DNA from: a virus
Taxonomy: Duplodnaviria; Heunggongvirae; Uroviricota; Caudoviricetes
DNA: 40,147 bases
IMG/VR virus record: IMGVR_UViG_2778261267_000001
Direction: 5' to 3' (one strand)
Shown here: positions 4,966 through 37,466 of the stretch, piece by piece
Numbering within the stretch: the stretch's first letter is position 1
Layout of the letters: every line of letters begins with the position of its first letter
Translations under genes and position numbers: made by a program
The notes under the pieces: generated by a model
Database searches by the model: none
The model's input: the letters and a program-made list of their open reading frames with translations, nothing else
Told to the model about the DNA's origin: nothing

Positions 4966-5042
4966 TTACCGTTGAGGTAATGATTATGCGTATCTGGTTT
5001 GATGTCAATAGATATGAGTTAAAAAAATTACCCATAAGGTAA
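4966..5042. promoter_or_regulatory. Leftward early promoter/operator region (OL-like) with two perfect TTACC-N5-GGTAA palindromes
   Basis: Perfect palindromes at 4966-4980 (TTACCGTTGAGGTAA) and 5028-5042 (TTACCCATAAGGTAA), plus a TTACC half-site at 4953-4957. Located between the repressor terminator and the first leftward gene. Confidence 0.6.
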
Positions 5043-5099: not shown

Positions 5100-5684
5100 T
5101 TATTGTTTGTTTTTTTCGTTCTGGCTGATGACAAATTCAATGTAACTTTCGATCTTTGCCTTCTCTGTTTCGGGTAACAATGCGTAGCGCGAGCGGTCAT
5201 AGTTGATAGTCGCAGGGTCGTGCGGGTGAATCAGTAATTCATAGCCGTGACGCCCGAATGCGGATGCAACATTCTCCAGGGTGGAAATGGAAACGCTGAC
5301 CTCATTGTTTAACAGGCGGCTGATTGTCACCTGGGCGACGCCGGATGCGCGGTGAAGTTTTCCCTGAGTTGAAAGGTCGCGGCTTTCGCTCATCCAGCGT
5401 TCCAGGTTGTGAGCCGCCAGCTGACCAATGTCGCTTGGGCCGACAGGCTGAAAACCTTCCTGAGAAAGCGAGCGATCGATATCAAGCCAGTTACGGGGTT
5501 TATTGGCGGCAGCTTCAATTTTTCGCGCAACCTGGTCGCCGATAACCTTCTTGCCAAGAGCCCAGCGGTTTACCAGATTTGCCTGAGTTCCAAGTTTTTC
5601 TGCCATCCGCGTCTGAACACCATTGAATTCACGGTCGATCAAGTCGTTGAGATTTTGCCTGCGGACGTCCTGGATACTTTTCAT
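5100..5684 (-). CDS. CI-like phage repressor (HTH DNA-binding protein, no obvious peptidase domain)
   Basis: 194-aa ORF divergent from a cro-like gene; HTH-like segments (MAEKLGTQANLVNRW, VAQVTISRLLNNE). Operator-like palindromes lie on both sides of the gene. Confidence 0.7.
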   Translation of the reverse strand: MKSIQDVRRQNLNDLIDREFNGVQTRMAEKLGTQANLVNRWALGKKVIGDQVARKIEAAANKPRNWLDIDRSLSQEGFQPVGPSDIGQLAAHNLERWMSESRDLSTQGKLHRASGVAQVTISRLLNNEVSVSISTLENVASAFGRHGYELLIHPHDPATINYDRSRYALLPETEKAKIESYIEFVISQNEKNKQ

Positions 5685-5739: not shown

Positions 5740-5802
5740 TTACCCAACAGGTAAATGCACCCCATAGGTAACTATCCTTGATTTTTGTTACCTTATGGGT
5801 GA
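5740..5802. promoter_or_regulatory. Divergent immunity promoter/operator region (OR-like) with three tandem operator-like sites
   Basis: Perfect TTACCCAACAGGTAA at 5740-5754, imperfect GCACCCCATAGGTAA at 5756-5770 and TTACCTTATGGGTGA at 5788-5802. A candidate rightward promoter (-35 TTGTTA 5786-5791, -10 TATTAT 5808-5813) overlaps the third site. Confidence 0.65.
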
Positions 5803-8070: not shown

Positions 8071-8147
8071 TTACCTTGCGGGTAATAAAATGTTCTAATT
8101 TCTATTGATTTCATGTCTTATGTGGTTTTTAATTACCTCAGAGGTAA
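8071..8147 (+). promoter_or_regulatory. Regulated internal promoter region: two perfect TTACC-N5-GGTAA palindromes flanking a TATGTGGTT element
   Basis: TTACCTTGCGGGTAA at 8071-8085, TATGTGGTT at 8119-8127, and TTACCTCAGAGGTAA at 8133-8147 (a perfect 15-bp palindrome overlapping the RBS of the 8151 gene). Confidence 0.6.
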
Positions 8148-8150
8148 ATC

Positions 8151-8495
8151 ATGAGAAAACAGATACAGGCTCTTGGTCGACTCAAAACAGGCCAGATGAA
8201 CAAAACAGAATCTGCGTATTGCCAGCACCTTGAGCTGCGTAAACGTGCAGGAGAAATCGTCTGGTATCGATTTGAGGGTATCAAGCTTCGGTTAGCTGAC
8301 AACACGTTCTATACGCCCGATTTTGCTGTGATGCTCGCCACCGGCGAGATGGAACTGCACGAAGTGAAAGGTTTCTGGACCGACGACGCCAGGGTGAAAA
8401 CCAAAGTCGCCGCAGATCAGTATCCGTTCCGAATCATTGGGGTAACGGTTAAACCAAAGAAAGCAGGTGGTGGCTGGAACATCGAAGAGTTCTGA
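8151..8495 (+). CDS. DUF1064-like phage protein (putative PD-(D/E)XK-type nuclease / resolvase-like)
   Basis: 114-aa ORF with a D...ELHEVKG segment (D-x(n)-E-x-K) typical of small phage nuclease-fold proteins. Confidence 0.5.
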   Translation: MRKQIQALGRLKTGQMNKTESAYCQHLELRKRAGEIVWYRFEGIKLRLADNTFYTPDFAVMLATGEMELHEVKGFWTDDARVKTKVAADQYPFRIIGVTVKPKKAGGGWNIEEF

Positions 8496-13317: not shown

Positions 13318-13359
13318 CATGGTACTATTACCACAACGGTAACTATTACCACGGTGGTT

Positions 13360-13956
13360 ATGATGCCTGCTGAACCTAAAACCTATAAACGCAAATCAAC
13401 GCAATTTAAGCCACTAACAGCAATGCAGGAGGCTTATTGCCAGTCATACATCAAAACGCCTGAAAACCAGACTCAGGCAGCGATTAACGCAGGATTCTCC
13501 CCAAATACAGCGGCAGTTAAAGCCAGTGTCATGATGCGCGATGAACGCATTCAAAAACGGATTGCCGAGTTGATGGAGGAGCGCAACAAACGAATGCGCG
13601 TCAGTGCTGATTACGTTCTCATGCGCCTGGTGGAGATCGACCAGATGGACGTGATCGACATCCTCAACGACGATGGGAGCCTTAAACCAATCCGTGAGTG
13701 GCCGAAAATCTGGCGCACTACGCTTAGCGGCTTTGATCTGTCATCGACCATCATGAACATGAACGAGGATTCGATAGAGACAATCCTCAAAAAAATTAAA
13801 TGGCCTGACAAGGTGAAGAACCTTGAGCTGATTGGTAAGCATGTTGATGTCAACGCGTTCAAAGAACGCCTGGATGTTAATGTGAATGTGACAATTGCTG
13901 ATCGCATAGCGGCAGCCAGGAAGAGACTGAAAGAACGTCAGGATGGCAATCAGTGA
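13360..13956 (+). CDS. Terminase small subunit
   Basis: 198 aa from the MMPAEPK start (RBS GGTGG); helix-rich small protein immediately upstream of and overlapping the large terminase. Confidence 0.7.
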   Translation: MMPAEPKTYKRKSTQFKPLTAMQEAYCQSYIKTPENQTQAAINAGFSPNTAAVKASVMMRDERIQKRIAELMEERNKRMRVSADYVLMRLVEIDQMDVIDILNDDGSLKPIREWPKIWRTTLSGFDLSSTIMNMNEDSIETILKKIKWPDKVKNLELIGKHVDVNAFKERLDVNVNVTIADRIAAARKRLKERQDGNQ

Positions 13957-16491: not shown

Positions 16492-16569
16492 TTACCCAAA
16501 AGGTAATAATTCGTGCGTTAAATGTCAACTACCTACGATAAATAAATCATATGTGGTTAAATTGGTAAT
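16492..16569 (+). promoter_or_regulatory. Candidate late promoter region: TTACC-N5-GGTAA palindrome plus TATGTGGTT-N5-GGTAAT element
   Basis: TTACCCAAAAGGTAA at 16492-16506; TATGTGGTT at 16550-16558 followed by GGTAAT at 16564-16569; about 30 bp upstream of the first virion-block gene. Confidence 0.55.
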
Positions 16570-22303: not shown

Positions 22304-24774
22304 TGGCTATCAGTTGGATCCAGCCCAGCTTTGCCGGTGGTGAGATTGGACCGTCGTTGTACGGACGTATCGACATGGCGAAGTACCAGGTGGCATTGCG
22401 CAAGTGCGATAACTTTATCGTGCGGCAGTATGGCGGCGTTGAGAATCGACCTGGTACGCGTTTTGTCGGTGCCGCCAAATACCCAAATCGGAAATGCCGC
22501 CTGATCCCGTTCCAGTTCTCGACGGTTCAGACTTATGCTCTGGAGTTCGGACACCAGTACATGCGTGTTATCAAAGATGGTGCGTTGGTGCTGAACAGCA
22601 GTAATGTTATTTATGAAATTGCCACGCCATATACTGAAGCCGATCTGTTCCTAATTAAATTCACGCAAAGCGCAGACGTGCTTACGCTGGTTCATCCGGC
22701 ATACCCGCCGAAAGAGTTGCGACGTTATGCGCATGACAACTGGCAACTGGTTGATGTGGTAACGAAGAACGGGCCATTTGAAGATATCAATATTGACGAG
22801 TCAGTGACGGTTTATGCCAGCGCCAGCACCGGGACAATTACGTTAACGGCAAGCGCCTCTATTTTTGGCGCGGAGCAGGTAGGCAAATTGTTCTATCTGG
22901 AACAGCCAGCAGTGGATTCAGTACCGGTATGGGAAACCAGTAAGAGTACGTCGATTGGCGATATTCGCCGTGCAGACAGTAACTACTATCGCGCCGTTAC
23001 AGCAGGCAAAACAGGTACTTTGCGCCCTTCGCATACAGAAGGCACATCATGGGATGGCTGGGGCGGATCCGGTGATGATGATACTGGCATTGAGTGGGAA
23101 TATCTGCACAGTGGTTTTGGCATTGCCCGTATCACTGCTGCAAATGGCACTACTGCAACTGCTGAGGTGATTTCCTATATCCCTTCGCAGGTCGTTGGCG
23201 AGGATAATGCCAGCTATAAATGGGCTAAATATGCCTGGAACAGTGTTAATGGTTATCCTGGCACTGTTGTTTATTATCAACAACGTCTTTACTTCGCCGC
23301 ATCGACTGCGTTCCCTCAGACTATCTGGGCCAGCCGTACTGGGGATTATAAGGATTTTGGCAAAAGCAATCCTACGCAGGATGACGACAGAATTATCTAC
23401 ACCTATGCCGGACGTCAGGTTAATGAGATCCGCCACCTGATTGATGTTGGTTCGCTGGTGGCGCTGACTTCCGGAGGTGAGTACGTCATTACCGGCGACC
23501 AGAACAAAGTATTAACCCCATCATCATTTGCATTCAGTTCTCAGGGATCAAATGGCTCAAGCAACGTCCCACCAATTGCCGTGGCGAATATTGCTCTGTT
23601 CGTCCAGGAGAAAGGCAGTGTTGTCCGTGATCTGGCCTACTCATTCGATGTTGACGGCTATCAGGGGAACGACCTGACCATCCTTGCCAATCATCTTTTT
23701 CAGAAGCACAGCATTGTTGACTGGTGCTTCTCTATTGTCCCTTACTCCAGCGCCTTCTGCATTCGTGATGACGGTAAATTACTGGTGATGACCTATTTGC
23801 GTGATCAGCAGGTTTTTGCATGGGCACCACAATCCAGTACCGGAAAATATGAAAGCACATGCAGTATCAGCGAAGGCAATGAAGATGCGGTGTATTTCGT
23901 CGTTAACCGAACCGTTAACGGGCAAACAGTGAGATACATCGAGCGGCTGTCCAGCCGTTTATTTACCAGCGATGAAGACGCTTTCTTTGTTGATTCTGGC
24001 CTTAGCTATGATGGAAGAAATACGTCTGACAGAACGATGACAATCACTGGTGGTTCTGGCGAATGGGATTACCGCGCGGAATATACAATCAGTATTTCTG
24101 GCGGTGCGTACTTCACCAGTAGTGATGTCGGTGCGCAACTACAGTTCCCTTATACCGGAACTGATCCTGATACTGGCGATGAAGTGTCAAAAGAATTACG
24201 TTGCGACATTATTTCTGTAACCAGCAACACCGCTGTAGTGGTTCGTGCTAACAGGAACGTCCCGCCATCCCTCAGGAATGTGGCCACCACGAACTGGCAG
24301 ATGGCGCGCCGGGCATTTGGCGGCTTGTCTCATCTTGAAGGTCAGACCGTAAACATCCTCTCTGATGCGAACGTGGAACCACAGAAAGTAGTTTCCGGAG
24401 GTGCCGTCACGCTGGAATCACCGGGGGCTGTAGTGCACATCGGCCTGCCAATAACTGCTGAATTCGAAACACTGGATATCAACATTAACGGACAGGAAAC
24501 GCTGCTGGACAAAAAACAGGTGATCCCATCCGTTACTCTGGTTGTGAATGCCAGCCGCGGCATCTGGGCGACTACGCCCGGCGGTAAATGGTACGAATAT
24601 CCACAGCGTGAATTCGAGTTCTACGATGATCCTGTTGATGACGCTACCGGAAAAGTAGAAGTGAAACTGGACAGTAACTGGGGCAAAAACGGACGTGTAA
24701 GAATCCGTCAGCTTGACCCGTTGCCGCTGTCTGTTCTTGCCGTTATTCCTCGCCTTACTGTTGGGGGATTCTGA
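22303..24774 (+). CDS. Tail tubular protein B-like / nozzle (T7 gp12 position) - putative
   Basis: 823-aa ORF (T7 gp12 is about 800 aa) following the gp11-like gene with an overlapping start. Confidence 0.45.
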   Translation: MAISWIQPSFAGGEIGPSLYGRIDMAKYQVALRKCDNFIVRQYGGVENRPGTRFVGAAKYPNRKCRLIPFQFSTVQTYALEFGHQYMRVIKDGALVLNSSNVIYEIATPYTEADLFLIKFTQSADVLTLVHPAYPPKELRRYAHDNWQLVDVVTKNGPFEDINIDESVTVYASASTGTITLTASASIFGAEQVGKLFYLEQPAVDSVPVWETSKSTSIGDIRRADSNYYRAVTAGKTGTLRPSHTEGTSWDGWGGSGDDDTGIEWEYLHSGFGIARITAANGTTATAEVISYIPSQVVGEDNASYKWAKYAWNSVNGYPGTVVYYQQRLYFAASTAFPQTIWASRTGDYKDFGKSNPTQDDDRIIYTYAGRQVNEIRHLIDVGSLVALTSGGEYVITGDQNKVLTPSSFAFSSQGSNGSSNVPPIAVANIALFVQEKGSVVRDLAYSFDVDGYQGNDLTILANHLFQKHSIVDWCFSIVPYSSAFCIRDDGKLLVMTYLRDQQVFAWAPQSSTGKYESTCSISEGNEDAVYFVVNRTVNGQTVRYIERLSSRLFTSDEDAFFVDSGLSYDGRNTSDRTMTITGGSGEWDYRAEYTISISGGAYFTSSDVGAQLQFPYTGTDPDTGDEVSKELRCDIISVTSNTAVVVRANRNVPPSLRNVATTNWQMARRAFGGLSHLEGQTVNILSDANVEPQKVVSGGAVTLESPGAVVHIGLPITAEFETLDININGQETLLDKKQVIPSVTLVVNASRGIWATTPGGKWYEYPQREFEFYDDPVDDATGKVEVKLDSNWGKNGRVRIRQLDPLPLSVLAVIPRLTVGGF

Positions 24775-25238
24775 TGATCGATGTTCGAATTGTTCCCGCT
24801 ACCGAAGAGCATCTTCAGATGATTTTGCCGGATGTTCGTCAGGCTGATATTGACGAACTGTATGCGGTATCGCTGATGACTACCGAAGATGCGCTGCGTG
24901 TTGGTCTTCGCACTGCGACTATGGCCTGGTCAGGATTTGCGAACGGAGAACTGGTAACCATGTTTGGCGTATCTCCGGCGTCAATGATCGGTGGCAATGG
25001 TACGCCCTGGCTGGTAGGAACCAGCCGTATTGAAAAATATCAGAAGACATTTCTTCGCCACTGCCGCCCTGTATTGCAGCAGATGCTGGCAGTTTATCCA
25101 CGCCTGGAAAACTACGTCGACGAGCGAAACCATGTTGCCAAAGCATGGCTGCACTGGCTTGGATTCAGGCTTGAAGAAGCCGCGCCTTATGGTGCTCTTG
25201 GTCTTAATTTCCACAGATTTCACATGGAGAGAAAATAA
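24774..25238 (+). CDS. Hypothetical virion-assembly protein (T7 gp13 position)
   Basis: 154-aa ORF with overlapping start; function by position only. Confidence 0.4.
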   Translation: MIDVRIVPATEEHLQMILPDVRQADIDELYAVSLMTTEDALRVGLRTATMAWSGFANGELVTMFGVSPASMIGGNGTPWLVGTSRIEKYQKTFLRHCRPVLQQMLAVYPRLENYVDERNHVAKAWLHWLGFRLEEAAPYGALGLNFHRFHMERK

Positions 25239-33075: not shown

Positions 33076-33100
33076 AGGCCGCTTTCGCGGCCTTTTCTTT
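33076..33100 (+). terminator. Intrinsic terminator after the membrane-protein genes
   Basis: AGGCCGC-TTTC-GCGGCCT hairpin followed by TTTCTTT; preceded by a 12-bp palindrome GTGACATGTCAC (33064-33075). Confidence 0.65.
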
Positions 33101-33374
33101 ATGTAGTTTGTTTTCGTAATTGTTCGGCACAATAGTCGAGATGTGTTTGCAGATCCTGCATAGACATCTGTGAGCTGGTGACGTAGTTAATCAGTGCAGT
33201 CAGTTCGGCAAGTGGGCCATCGACATTAAATCCATCCTTATCGAGATCCCGGAGTAATTTCATCAAGTGCGATCCATCCACCAGTGACCTGACGCCTCCC
33301 GGCGTGTGAATCCTTTCGGTAAATCCGTCTTCCAGTGGATAGTGATACTGCTGCATCTTATCTTCTCCATGCAA
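33099..33374 (-). CDS. Hypothetical protein (91 aa), divergent from the tailspike gene
   Basis: ORF convergent with the membrane-protein genes and sharing a 177-bp divergent control region with the tailspike gene; no motif recognised. Confidence 0.45.
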   Translation of the reverse strand: MHGEDKMQQYHYPLEDGFTERIHTPGGVRSLVDGSHLMKLLRDLDKDGFNVDGPLAELTALINYVTSSQMSMQDLQTHLDYCAEQLRKQTT

Positions 33375-33432: not shown

Positions 33433-33498
33433 TTACCTGAAAGGTAATATCTATTCGTGTTTATGGGTTATCTATCCATATGTGGTTTTTAAGGTAAT
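33433..33498. promoter_or_regulatory. Tailspike / divergent-gene control region: TTACC-N5-GGTAA palindrome plus TATGTGGTT-N5-GGTAAT element
   Basis: TTACCTGAAAGGTAA at 33433-33447; TATGTGGTT at 33479-33487; GGTAAT at 33493-33498. Confidence 0.55.
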
Positions 33499-33551: not shown

Positions 33552-35750
33552 ATGACGGTCTCAACCGAAGTTGACCACAACGAATACACAGGTAACGGCG
33601 TTACGACATCGTTTCCGTATACCTTCCGCATTTTCAAAAAATCCGACCTGGTTGTTCAGGTGGTTGACCTTGACGAAAATATCGCTGTGCTGGCTCTTGA
33701 TACTGATTATACAGTTACCGGGGCGGGAGGATATAACGGTGGTAATGTAATTCTGTCGAAGGCGCTGGCTAACGGTTATAAGATTTCTATATCACGAGAG
33801 CTACCGGTTACTCAGGAAACTGATCTGCGCAATCAGGGCAAGTTCTTTGCAGAAGTGCATGAGGATGCTTTTGATAAACTGACTATGCTGATTCAGCAGG
33901 CTATTAGTTTGTTGCGTCTTTCTCTGCGTAAACCGTCTTTTGTCGCAAATTACTATGATGCTCTGAACAATTACATTCGCAATCTTCGTGACCCGTCACG
34001 TCCACAGGATGCAGCAACAAAGAATTATGTTGATAGTCTTGCTGAAGAAAATTTAAGACGAACTTTGCGAACCCCTGAACGGATACCAGAACTCCCTGGA
34101 GTTGAACAGCGTAAGAATAAGATTATTGCAATGGATGATTCTGGAAATCCGATAATGGTTTTGCCTGAATCTGGTTCAGCATCAGATGTTCTGATTGAAC
34201 TAGCTAAGCCAAGCGGCCTTGGTATGATAGGGGCATCTTCTGGAAATAGTGCGCAGGCTGATATTGATTTATTGTCTTATGCTTACGGTATAAGATTAAG
34301 CACTTACCTTGATCGCGAAGACCCTTTGAGTGATGCTCTGATTGATTCACGATCAAAAAATCTACCATTAGTCATTGACTGCGATGCGACGTACAAAACA
34401 TTTCTGGTTTACAGTAACGACAGGATAATCGGTTGCGGAGATCATACTTTAACAAAAGCAGGGAATGACAAGTCATCAATACCATCAGCACAGCAACCTG
34501 AACGCCCACCTGGAACGATGACAGATTTCAGCGCGATTGATGCCGGTATTATTATCGTTCACCCTGAAAATGGAGCAGCAACTAATATCGAAATCACAGG
34601 GTTTAACATAAAAAGCAACTCTCACTCCGAATATGGAATATATCATCCTGTTTTATCATTTTCACGTATATCTAATATCAAAATTACTGGCTTTAAAAAG
34701 GGGATGAGAGCAAAAGACTCTTATGGAAACCAGTTTAGTAAAATATTCTCATTGTATTATTACTCTCCCCAAGATGTTTATAGCGACAACTATTGTTATG
34801 ATTTTTCTGATGGAGATTACGCCTCAGGAACAAGTAACACATTCAGTAATGTTACCTGTACTAACTATAAGAGACCATTCTTCTTTCAGAACCATAATTA
34901 CTTCACGATGACAAACTGTGGTGGTGAAGGGGTTAATACGCATGAGGCAGTAACAAACACAAACTATCCTCTTGTTTTTGAGTTTGTAAATGTTGTAAGT
35001 GCTGTATTGAACACTCCTTATACTGAAAATCTTTATGGAGGATTTTTAAGAGCAACATCAACGCCTGAAGGAACTGCGCAAGGTCCATCAACTATAGTTA
35101 TAAATGGACCGCAGGCAATTACAGGCATATACGGAACAGACACTGAAGTTGGAGCAAAGTTATTTGATGTAAGCGGCTCAGTAAACGTAGCTGTTAATGG
35201 TGGGGTGTTGACAGGTGCATCATTTGGCAAGTTCCTTAAGTTTGGCGGGGCTTCAGACGAAGCATGTCTGCTGATAACGGGCATGGATATGAAGTATGTG
35301 CTGTCTCAAATACGTAGTGATTTTGGATATAACGGAATTAATTCAGTTAAAGGACTTAGGCCAATTCAAATTTTGAGGAATGGAATTGGCTCTGCAACTG
35401 GTAGCGGGATTGTTAACTGGAAAAGTGCATCTATAGATGATTATTTTATGAATGGCGGTAATTATACAAAAACAGCGCTTGGTGGTTTTTATAAGATAGA
35501 AATTACGCTGCCAATAGGATCATCTGCATCAGGTGGAGAAGTTCAACTCTTGCTGTCAGATACGGATACAGACAATGGAGTTATAATTTCACAATGCTAT
35601 GTTCCTCCAGTGTCAAGCGGTAAGTTTACTGCCTCCATAAGCTACGAAGGTAGATTGCCTGGAGGAAAGTACCTTTATGTAAAGGCTAATAATGCCAGCT
35701 GGTCATCTGCATACGACATTGATTCAGTGTTTAATGTAATCCTGAAGTAA
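33552..35750 (+). CDS. Tailspike / receptor-binding protein with a low-GC C-terminal (likely O-antigen-directed) domain
   Basis: 732-aa ORF with strong RBS. N-terminal ~170 aa at normal GC, remainder markedly AT-rich; C-terminal region rich in N/G/S/T, consistent with a beta-helix receptor-binding fold. Confidence 0.8.
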   Translation: MTVSTEVDHNEYTGNGVTTSFPYTFRIFKKSDLVVQVVDLDENIAVLALDTDYTVTGAGGYNGGNVILSKALANGYKISISRELPVTQETDLRNQGKFFAEVHEDAFDKLTMLIQQAISLLRLSLRKPSFVANYYDALNNYIRNLRDPSRPQDAATKNYVDSLAEENLRRTLRTPERIPELPGVEQRKNKIIAMDDSGNPIMVLPESGSASDVLIELAKPSGLGMIGASSGNSAQADIDLLSYAYGIRLSTYLDREDPLSDALIDSRSKNLPLVIDCDATYKTFLVYSNDRIIGCGDHTLTKAGNDKSSIPSAQQPERPPGTMTDFSAIDAGIIIVHPENGAATNIEITGFNIKSNSHSEYGIYHPVLSFSRISNIKITGFKKGMRAKDSYGNQFSKIFSLYYYSPQDVYSDNYCYDFSDGDYASGTSNTFSNVTCTNYKRPFFFQNHNYFTMTNCGGEGVNTHEAVTNTNYPLVFEFVNVVSAVLNTPYTENLYGGFLRATSTPEGTAQGPSTIVINGPQAITGIYGTDTEVGAKLFDVSGSVNVAVNGGVLTGASFGKFLKFGGASDEACLLITGMDMKYVLSQIRSDFGYNGINSVKGLRPIQILRNGIGSATGSGIVNWKSASIDDYFMNGGNYTKTALGGFYKIEITLPIGSSASGGEVQLLLSDTDTDNGVIISQCYVPPVSSGKFTASISYEGRLPGGKYLYVKANNASWSSAYDIDSVFNVILK

Positions 35751-35777
35751 ACTAAGGCCCAGAACATGGGCCTTTCG

Positions 35778-36836
35778 TTACTTTATAAAGCGGCGACCTA
35801 TTGAAATAAAATGCTTTTCAATTAGTTCGTGCACTGCCACTGATATTATTAAGGTGATTGATAAAACTATAAACAACCTAGAAAACCCTGATGTGTTTGT
35901 GAAAATAAATGTATCGTACTTATAAATGCACTCAAGTATAATTACATGCACTATATATAATGAATAAGATATATCCCCGAGGTACTCAAGAGTGTTGCAT
36001 TTTTTTATTCCATTATTTTTTTCATACATAACTAAAATAAATACTATTAGAGCGCTTAGCCCCCCCCACTTTAATGGGCCGTGACCATAGAATAAATTAA
36101 TCTGGGATGCAATTAACGAAAATAACAGAAGCAATAGCCAAGGTGTAATTTTATTAAACAATATGGACTTGAAATCTACATGTTTGTATATTGCATATAT
36201 AATAATCCCATATACAAAATCAAGAAACATTGGTGAATAGAAAAGAGCGAATGCATTGCTTGGCGTTACGTTAACTTGTTTTGTATAAGCATCTGTAGAA
36301 ATCGAATCATTGAAATAGTAAGAGGCCACAATGAATATTACAACGATAGATAGCAAGCTAATGCATGTTCTGTATTTTTGATTGAAGGCAATAGCCAACC
36401 CAAAAATAGCATAGAATGCGATTTCATAAGTTATCGTCCATGCAGTATCAAGTAAATTGAACCCATAAAAAGGACTTCCTGCAGAATAATCGCTATGTAT
36501 TGGTATTAATGATTTTATGTATAATGAGTAACTGGATTCTGATTTAATGGTTAAGAAATAAACTGTCACGCATATTATCAGTAAAGGATAAATCCTGAAA
36601 AAACGACGAATAAAAAAATTAAATACGGCGTGCTTTTCAAGCCTTTCAGTTGAAAGGCATATTATAAATCCGCTAATTATAAAAAAAAGGTCAACACCGA
36701 AAGCCCCGTAATTGAAAAGCAAAGAACCTAGATCCTTCTGTGAGTAAACTTCATTCAAATACCACTTCGTATGATAAAGAACCACAAAAATAGAAGCAAA
36801 TCCCCTCATGTATTGTATTGAATGAACTTTGTTCAA
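35778..36836 (-). CDS. Acyltransferase family 3 membrane protein (probable O-antigen acetyltransferase, lysogenic conversion)
   Basis: 352-aa very AT-rich ORF with about ten hydrophobic segments and an N-terminal MRGFASIFVVLYH segment typical of acyltransferase_3 enzymes. Confidence 0.8.
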   Translation of the reverse strand: MNKVHSIQYMRGFASIFVVLYHTKWYLNEVYSQKDLGSLLFNYGAFGVDLFFIISGFIICLSTERLEKHAVFNFFIRRFFRIYPLLIICVTVYFLTIKSESSYSLYIKSLIPIHSDYSAGSPFYGFNLLDTAWTITYEIAFYAIFGLAIAFNQKYRTCISLLSIVVIFIVASYYFNDSISTDAYTKQVNVTPSNAFALFYSPMFLDFVYGIIIYAIYKHVDFKSILFNKITPWLLLLLFSLIASQINLFYGHGPLKWGGLSALIVFILVMYEKNNGIKKCNTLEYLGDISYSLYIVHVIILECIYKYDTFIFTNTSGFSRLFIVLSITLIISVAVHELIEKHFISIGRRFIK

Positions 36837-37046
36837 TTAAATAACCCTCTGCTTAATAATATTTTTACATAACTGTAAGTTATTTTGATTCTCATAAGAA
36901 CCAATGGTTTTTAGAAAACCACCACAAGCAAATCGAAGTTTATCACCTTTGGGGTAATTGCGGTAGAATTGGTATGACGTTTTTTGAACCGCATATGGTT
37001 TATTGTGTATGATGAACTCATCAATAAGTTGGTTCTTCATGCACAT
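36837..37046 (-). CDS. Hypothetical small protein (69 aa) upstream of the acyltransferase - doubtful
   Basis: AT-rich ORF abutting the acyltransferase start; a near-operator palindrome (36943-36957) lies inside it, so this may be promoter DNA rather than a gene. Confidence 0.3.
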   Translation of the reverse strand: MCMKNQLIDEFIIHNKPYAVQKTSYQFYRNYPKGDKLRFACGGFLKTIGSYENQNNLQLCKNIIKQRVI

Positions 37047-37061
37047 TAAACGGTGGTTTTT

Positions 37062-37466
37062 ATGTCAGTTCAGCTAACCAGTGAGTCTTTAAATCAGTGG
37101 CTTAGTGCTGGTTCTCTTGCTGCGGTGATAGCAGGGGTTCCTCCAGAGGTGGCTTTGGGGGCTTTGGCTGGGGCGGTAATTTTTGTTACCTCGGCCATCG
37201 AGTATCCCATTCATCGCCGGGTTCTCCTGTCTATGCTCAGCTTCCTCTGCGGCCTTCTCTTTTACAAACCTACAGCGTCCATCCTTATCGGTGTAGCCAG
37301 CCTGATCCCTACCATCACGCAGGACTCTTTCGAGAAAGGGATTGTTTTCTCTGCTGGTGCATTCGTGTCAGCAATCGTTGCAGTTCGAATTGGCATCTGG
37401 CTCTATCACCGTTCCGATAATCCACGCGAGTTAATTCCGGGGAGAAAAGACGATGGTAACGCATGA
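37062..37466 (+). CDS. Holin-like membrane protein
   Basis: 134 aa from the ATG at 37062; three or more hydrophobic helices; first gene of the lysis cassette, upstream of the endolysin. Confidence 0.5.
   Translation: MSVQLTSESLNQWLSAGSLAAVIAGVPPEVALGALAGAVIFVTSAIEYPIHRRVLLSMLSFLCGLLFYKPTASILIGVASLIPTITQDSFEKGIVFSAGAFVSAIVAVRIGIWLYHRSDNPRELIPGRKDDGNA

Follow-up and report, generated by a model that had tools for sequence, protein, structure and literature searches.

The window analysed here, a stretch of 40,147 nucleotides (IMG/VR record IMGVR_UViG_2778261267_000001), is an integrated epsilon15-like podovirus prophage (genus Uetakevirus) of Escherichia coli, with the integrase gene at its start and the host genes yfgI and yfgH at its end. 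A 1.4-kb query covering positions 35700-37100 is 100% identical to a chromosome stretch of E. coli isolate 23S01245-7. The locus of interest is the control region at 36837-37061, which separates a leftward gene for an O-antigen acyltransferase from the rightward lysis cassette. The acyltransferase gene starts at a TTG (36836), the same start as called by PGAP, with the Shine-Dalgarno sequence AGAGGG at 36845-36850, 8 nt before it. The first lysis-cassette gene has two alternative starts, ATG 37062 and GTG 37053. The sequence-only reading named the two flanking genes as an acyltransferase and a holin. The first assignment holds; the gene on the right encodes a putative holin or membrane protein (Phage_holin_8), and the annotated holin is the next gene. 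Because a bidirectional terminator hairpin follows the tailspike gene, between it and the convergent acyltransferase gene, the lysis genes need a promoter of their own within 36837-37061. The coordinates of these and all other features are collected in Table 1.

The acyltransferase module (35778-36940) has a G+C content of about 30-33% and occurs in only 2 of 5426 complete E. coli genomes; in the phage and IMG/VR collections searched it has no relative at either the DNA or the protein level. Homology to other Uetakeviruses restarts at 36939-36941, exactly at the edge of the operator-like palindrome described below. Strain 2824 carries a near-identical copy of the locus, with only two differences from the window in 2 kb, at 36971 and 36992, both in the intergenic control region. 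The C>T change at 36992 turns CCGCATATGG into CCGTATATGG, a form present in other relatives.

Table 1. Features of the acyltransferase/lysis control region and of the predicted operator set, in window coordinates unless epsilon15 is named.
Feature	Position	Strand	Basis
Acyltransferase_3 family O-antigen acyltransferase, 352 aa	35778..36836	-	Pfam 6e-30; PHROG O-acetyltransferase 3e-69
Bidirectional terminator hairpin between convergent tailspike and acyltransferase genes	35754..35774		hairpin prediction
69-aa ORF, judged non-coding	36837..37046	-	homology, frame, Shine-Dalgarno, strain comparison
Predicted leftward extended -10: TGA (36943-36945) and TAAACT (36937-36942)	36937..36945	-	comparative; TG at 36944-36945
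Weak -35-like hexamer CTACCG, 18-nt spacer; family consensus TTAACG	36961..36966	-	column profile; inference only
Operator-like palindrome TCACC-TTTGG-GGTAA	36943..36957		sequence scan; conserved position; match to epsilon15 'repressor' protein_bind
Candidate rightward promoter TTATCA-18-TAGAAT, operator in spacer, geometry as window P_R	36940..36969	+	promoter scan
Conserved leader hairpin	36975..37067	+	dG -33.8 kcal/mol, z -5.2; some compensatory pairs
Candidate lysis promoter TTGAAC-18-TATGAT, operator centre at about -71	36984..37013	+	promoter scan
First lysis-cassette gene, putative holin, epsilon15 gp23-like	37062..37466	+	PGAP annotation, Pfam, PHROG
Rep repressor gene	5100..5684	-	full-length match to crystallised SPC32H Rep, PDB 5D50, E = 4e-42; HTH_3 domain
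Two exact operators (4966-4980, 5028-5042), 62 bp apart, flanking leftward early promoter	4966..5042		palindrome scan
Immunity-region operators at P_R: 5740-5754 exact; 5788-5802 TTACC..GGTGA, mirror of the 36943 mismatch	5740..5802		palindrome scan
Two exact operators, 62 bp apart, upstream of gene at 8151	8071..8147		palindrome scan
Operator pair upstream of small terminase gene	13328..13360		palindrome scan
Operator upstream of head-gene unit	16492..16506		palindrome scan
Operator between antirepressor-like gene (-) and tailspike gene (+)	33433..33447		palindrome scan
CATATGTGGTTT box, window	8117-8128, 16548-16559, 33477-33488, ~36991-37001		cassette alignment
CATATGTGGTTT box, epsilon15	2988, 19940, 24751, 35953		cassette alignment

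The palindrome in the control region, TCACCTTTGGGGTAA, lies where the sequence-only reading had placed it and is indeed a one-mismatch copy of TTACC-N5-GGTAA. Its distance from the two genes had been given as about 105 bp; it is 107 bp to the acyltransferase TTG and 105 bp to ATG 37062 (96 bp to GTG 37053). Taken with its flanks (36942-36958), the site reads ATCACC-N5-GGTAAT and matches at 11 of 12 positions the sequence ATTACC-N5-GGTAAT, which the epsilon15 record NC_004775.2 annotates as a "repressor" protein-binding site at seven places, an annotation that is itself a prediction. The motif is strongly over-represented. Allowing at most one mismatch to TTACC-N5-GGTAA, the window contains eight exact and three one-mismatch copies, 11 against 0.68 expected, a number reached in none of 100 shuffled sequences. 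Epsilon15 has 15 copies (11 exact, 4 with one mismatch) and SPC32H has 18 (11 exact, 7 with one mismatch), against about 0.5 expected.

The layout of these sites is alike in the window, epsilon15 and SPC32H, with clusters on both sides of the repressor gene and one or two copies ahead of the small-terminase, head-gene, tailspike and ruvC-like units. The repressor, Rep, is described as a tetramer that binds palindromic sites, with pairs of DNA-binding domains that come from different dimers (PMC9638917). We assign the palindrome to Rep because of the epsilon15 annotation, the clustering of sites around rep and these secondary descriptions of a tetramer on palindromes (PMC9638917); the literature consulted contained nothing usable on operator mapping in Uetakeviruses. 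Centre-to-centre distances within the operator pairs of the window are 62 bp (4966/5028), 62 bp (8071/8133), 48 bp (5740/5788) and 18 bp (13328/13346). The 62-bp pairs bracket a promoter and would be compatible with looping by a tetrameric repressor. The operator at 33433-33447 is part of another divergent region, in which the facing gene (33099-33374, minus strand) occupies the position of the SPC32H antirepressor gene ant, an arrangement parallel to that of the acyltransferase/lysis region.

The one-base variant found at 36943 is not confined to this locus. TCACC is the P_R-proximal operator in both epsilon15 (33388) and SPC32H (34437), and its mirror form, GGTGA, is found at 5788 in the window. 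A different variant, GGTAT (ATACC), is kept just upstream of the integrase gene in epsilon15 (26882) and SPC32H (26960).

The position of the palindrome is conserved among related phages. It lies at -119 relative to the ATG of the gp23-like gene in the window and at -120 in phiV10, SPN1S/SPC32H, Tyrion, PAT1, BUCT554 and epsilon15. All of these carry TCACC-N5-GGTAA except epsilon15, which has a perfect TTACC; this exact copy, at the orthologous position 24704, is without annotation in the epsilon15 record. At the same locus the site is absent in TL-2011b, PAS61, phiv142-3 and ZX5. Scanning IMG/VR with the conserved lysis-leader motif gave 120 loci; of the distinct control regions among them, about 55 have the site, in each case at a fixed distance from the motif. 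By type, these 53-55 regions (the range depends on how flanks are de-duplicated) comprise 41 with TCACC, 8 with exact TTACC and 6 with ATACC or CTACC. The site is missing altogether from about 37 of roughly 95 distinct relatives. In four related phages (L018, L024, L030 and L094) a divergent gene of acyltransferase size (321-424 aa) lies next to the same lysis leader, and nothing resembling the operator is present at its usual distance; in L094 there is a one-mismatch copy, displaced upstream by 14 bp.

When 47 distinct relatives are aligned, conservation of ACC and GGTAATTT is 98-100%, a statistic that ignores the shared ancestry of the contigs, and the 5-bp centre is variable. Invariant half-sites around a variable centre are the pattern expected of a protein-binding site. 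A chance near-match was considered for the site and rejected on its conservation in relatives. The near-palindrome is real and conserved, and it looks like a site for the master repressor of the prophage. The operator function that the sequence-only reading had put forward is supported at the level of sequence, by the half-site pattern, the fixed position, the cognate Rep gene in the same window, the perfect epsilon15 copy and the use of the same TCACC variant at P_R of epsilon15 and SPC32H. The site at 36943-36957 adds an unannotated member to an operator set already known from a well-studied group of phages.

On the minus strand, the left edge of the palindrome forms part of a predicted promoter. 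The sequence TGA-TAAACT has the TGn and TAnnnT elements of a sigma-70 extended -10 promoter, and GGTGA followed directly by TAnnnT is found on the minus strand in 39 of 41 distinct TCACC-type loci. The hexamer varies among these loci (for example TAAAGT, TATTAT, TATCAT, TAAAAT and TATAAT), and the DNA beyond it belongs to unrelated conversion modules. In the plus-strand column at -6, which corresponds to the final T of the hexamer, 79% of the sequences have an A, whereas the neighbouring columns are conserved at 38-49% (binomial 1e-9). A divergent gene of at least 100 aa is present in 30 of 39 loci with the extended -10 and in 13 of 56 without it (Fisher 3e-7, shared ancestry ignored); most of the nine exceptions have truncated leftward ORFs starting 25-33 nt from the site. 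Only 26-42 bp separate the site from the start of the conversion gene to its left in relatives, so that any leftward promoter must overlap the site. The weak -35-like hexamer lies in columns of which T21 and A22 are conserved at 94% and G19 at 77%. Leftward transcription would start near 36930, with the operator at about -27 to -13. In epsilon15 the corresponding element, TGG-TAAAAT, is shifted 3 bp into the perfect operator, which is the geometry of P_R. A simple promoter scanner found no leftward match in the window, SPN1S or PAT1, and its leftward matches in phiV10 were unrelated; as this scanner is blind to extended -10 elements, the argument for the leftward promoter is a comparative one throughout.

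The mismatched C of the palindrome provides the G of the TG motif, so that the same base pairs would serve both RNA polymerase and Rep. Judged by its conservation, this C is a dual-use base belonging to the extended -10 and not a mark of decay. The opposite view would be that the site is a relic operator to which Rep no longer binds, its bases being kept for promoters only (TG and -10 leftward, TAATTT as a -10 rightward), with conversion and lysis independent of Rep at this locus. Such a relic would fit the left half-site, which is off consensus in most relatives (TCACC, ATACC or CTACC), and the TTT after GGTAA, which is kept here and not at other operators and suggests constraint beyond Rep. 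It would also fit the expression of conversion genes in lysogens. Promoter spacers are not normally constrained, yet here ACC and GGTAA are invariant and only the centre varies. Moreover, the TCACC variant is also used at P_R of epsilon15 and SPC32H, where repression is required, and epsilon15 and several phages without a divergent gene keep a perfect TTACC at this position. On balance we regard a relic as unlikely.

Expression in lysogens nevertheless constrains the functional-operator reading. Lysogens of phiV10 bear acetylated O157 antigen (PMC11854483), and the conversion genes must therefore be expressed in the lysogenic state. Any repression at this promoter would then have to be partial, as at the maintenance promoter of the repressor itself. 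Unless it is partial, lysogenic expression conflicts with an operator placed in the promoter spacer, and this is the main tension in the interpretation that we favour. The relatives without the site, and the four that have a divergent gene of acyltransferase size and no site at the expected distance, also count against it.

In the rightward direction two sigma-70-like promoter candidates were found. The first, which has the operator in its spacer, has a -10 that is poorly conserved in relatives (TAAGAG or TAGGAG). Orthologs of the second are conserved in all relatives, the one in phiV10 (TTAACC-17-TATAAT) scoring 10/12, and its columns T41, T42, A44 and C46 are conserved in the 47-sequence alignment. 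Geometrically, the operator overlaps the leftward promoter and lies about 70 bp upstream of this best-conserved lysis promoter, without overlapping it.

The second candidate is located within the 5' arm of the conserved leader hairpin. The hairpin pairs with the translation start of the first lysis gene, both at the Shine-Dalgarno sequence GGTGG (37052-37056) and at the ATG (37062), GAACCGC pairing with GGUGGUU around the Shine-Dalgarno and UGACGU with the AUGUCA of the start. The epsilon15 record labels the orthologous hairpin 'RNaseIII'; a search of Rfam assigned the leader to no family, the only matches being well below the gathering score. Because the promoter lies inside the 5' arm, its own transcripts would be made without the anti-Shine-Dalgarno arm, and transcripts reading through from upstream would carry it.

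The lysis control region aligns with those of the ruvC-like, head-gene and tailspike units as a set of paralogous cassettes, both in the window and in epsilon15. Each consists of a predicted Rep operator followed after 29-41 nt by a box resembling CATATGTGGTTT. Except in the ruvC-like unit, the box is followed 9 nt later by a hexamer, which is TAATAA, TAATAG or TATGAT. The box is at about -30 to -19 of these -10-like hexamers, which have no obvious -35, and this is reminiscent of activator-dependent middle or late promoters. DnaA, IHF and CRP were considered as readers of the box and gave no convincing match, as judged by eye only. Since the same cassette of operator and box also heads the head-gene, tailspike and ruvC-like units, the lysis genes would belong to the same Rep-controlled set.

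At four late or middle promoter cassettes the site lies some 60-80 bp upstream, an activator-like position, and the palindrome could in principle be read by another phage protein, Cro-like or a late regulator, instead of or besides Rep. This is very unlikely in our estimation, because the sites are most densely clustered on either side of the rep gene, which is what an immunity repressor would lead one to expect, and the epsilon15 authors assigned the sites to the repressor.

A role in the rightward direction is indicated by five loci (L034, L036, L045, L047 and L071) that have a perfect or ATACC-type site at an unchanged distance from the leader motif (-51 to -54) and no divergent gene. Here the gene upstream has the same orientation or the site is preceded by a terminator, and in some the site directly follows a tailspike stop codon or a terminator. 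Retention of the site in phages without a divergent gene argues that it serves the rightward unit too. It could even be that the lysis unit is the main or only target of the operator, where tetrameric Rep would form a roadblock or anchor a loop, and that the overlap of the operator with the leftward promoter is incidental. The operator-plus-box cassettes at the head of three other rightward units would agree with this, as would the tetramer with its DNA-binding domains paired between dimers (PMC9638917). In the gp3 and tailspike cassettes a GGTAAT half-site lies at the -10, to which a tetramer could bridge; the lysis cassette has none. We nonetheless find an exclusively or mainly rightward role improbable. 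A second Rep site or clear half-site near the lysis promoter was sought in the window to explain repression from -71 and was not found, the site is missing in about 30 relatives with an intact lysis cassette and leader, and the conservation of the extended -10 shows that the left edge is selected for leftward transcription. An operator at about -70 gives no account of how the lysis promoter would be silenced, which counts against the reading that we favour.

The control region also contains an open reading frame of 210 bp, which spans the palindrome and is in frame with the acyltransferase, with a single TAA between them. The sequence-only reading took it to be more likely promoter DNA than a gene, a judgement that our comparisons bear out. 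Among 5.8 billion protein clusters the only homolog of the predicted 69-aa product is its own 99%-identical copy; it has no Pfam match, and the sole PHROG match, to the N-terminus, is weak (E = 0.002). The sequence upstream of its ATG, aaaaaccaccgtttaATG, contains no Shine-Dalgarno motif. PGAP calls the ORF in neither of the E. coli genomes that carry it, and these two near-identical copies are the only ones in E. coli. The N-terminal 35 codons are the antisense of DNA common to other Uetakeviruses, and conservation of the frame, for which the sequence-only reading had suggested a check, is not seen: a minus-strand frame of any phase stays open across the stretch in only 9 of 101 distinct relatives. 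Two relatives alone share the first ~18 residues and then diverge completely, and there is a 1-nt indel within the ORF relative to most relatives. In strain 2824 the two substitutions amount to Q26* and A19T in the ORF, and both flanking proteins are identical to those of the window. The start codon precedes the predicted start of leftward transcription by 116 nt. Between 3 and 7% of random sequences of the same composition contain an ORF of this length, a frequency that is unremarkable for one intergenic region among many.

That same 3-7% is low enough to be counted in favour of a genuine short gene that shares a transcript with the acyltransferase and is translationally coupled to it, as may the PHROG match and the TAA stop, which abuts the acyltransferase TTG. 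We consider such a gene extremely improbable, given that it has no homologs beyond near-identical DNA, no Shine-Dalgarno and no PGAP call, that the frame is lost in relatives having the DNA of its N-terminal half, that strain 2824 has a nonsense mutation, and that its start lies upstream of the predicted transcription start. The ORF is almost certainly non-coding, and would be an accidental open frame across regulatory DNA.

We think it probable that the palindrome is a functional Rep operator in a bidirectional promoter region, where it would occlude the conversion promoter and mark the lysis unit as Rep-controlled. Rep, a homolog of SPC32H Rep and epsilon15 gp38, would bind at 36943-36957 within a compact two-way control region. 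To the left, the predicted extended -10 promoter, with the operator in its spacer, would drive the acyltransferase gene, and Rep occupancy would throttle it by occlusion, some expression persisting in lysogens. To the right, the same operator would be the upstream element, centred at about -71, of the lysis promoter cassette. In this proposal, that Rep binds, where transcription starts, and in which direction and how strongly it is regulated are all inferred from comparison of the DNA.

The site shares with the annotated epsilon15 repressor sites the core and flanks as well as a scattered arrangement in which each transcription unit is preceded by one or two sites. In contrast to those sites, the conversion/lysis site is unannotated in epsilon15, and the window copy carries the conserved TCACC variant. 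With the SPC32H Rep/Ant switch (PDB 5D50, 5D4Z) the window has in common a full-length Rep homolog, and in SPC32H a predicted operator, TCACCTTTAGGGTAA, is found at the orthologous position 24782.

By analogy, the proposed arrangement resembles the O_R region of phage lambda, in which the back-to-back promoters P_RM and P_R share operators and the weak O_R3 overlaps P_RM. Like P_RM, the leftward promoter may be a maintenance-type promoter that is active in lysogens and whose overlap with an operator permits throttling at high repressor levels. The analogy would be limited in that the window has one operator where lambda has three, shows no evidence of activation, and has lysogenic-conversion cargo instead of the repressor gene on its leftward side. 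In phage P1, the C1 protein is likewise a single immunity repressor with operators scattered genome-wide before late and accessory units, although C1 is an unrelated protein and its operator sequence is asymmetric.

Our comparisons argue against annotation of the 69-aa ORF and flag an unannotated operator in the reference genomes of epsilon15, phiV10 and SPN1S. More tentatively, and with less confidence than in the operator itself, they raise the possibility that the master repressor of epsilon15-like phages itself adjusts the level of lysogenic conversion, directly, through an operator that shares bases with the promoter, and that a hairpin additionally locks the lysis genes against read-through. 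The serotype-conversion cargo and the lysis cassette would then be under the same immunity repressor as the early genes. With its promoter in the 5' arm of the hairpin, only the lysis unit's own transcripts would escape sequestration of the ribosome-binding site. The conversion promoter would be a clear example of one base pair with two readers, RNA polymerase through the TG motif and the repressor through the half-site. If this is true, O-antigen modification would come in a burst when a cell is infected or the prophage is induced, and stable lysogens would keep it at a low maintenance level, which bears on when O-antigen modification, and hence phage resistance and serotype, switches on in E. 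coli, Salmonella and Enterobacter lysogens.
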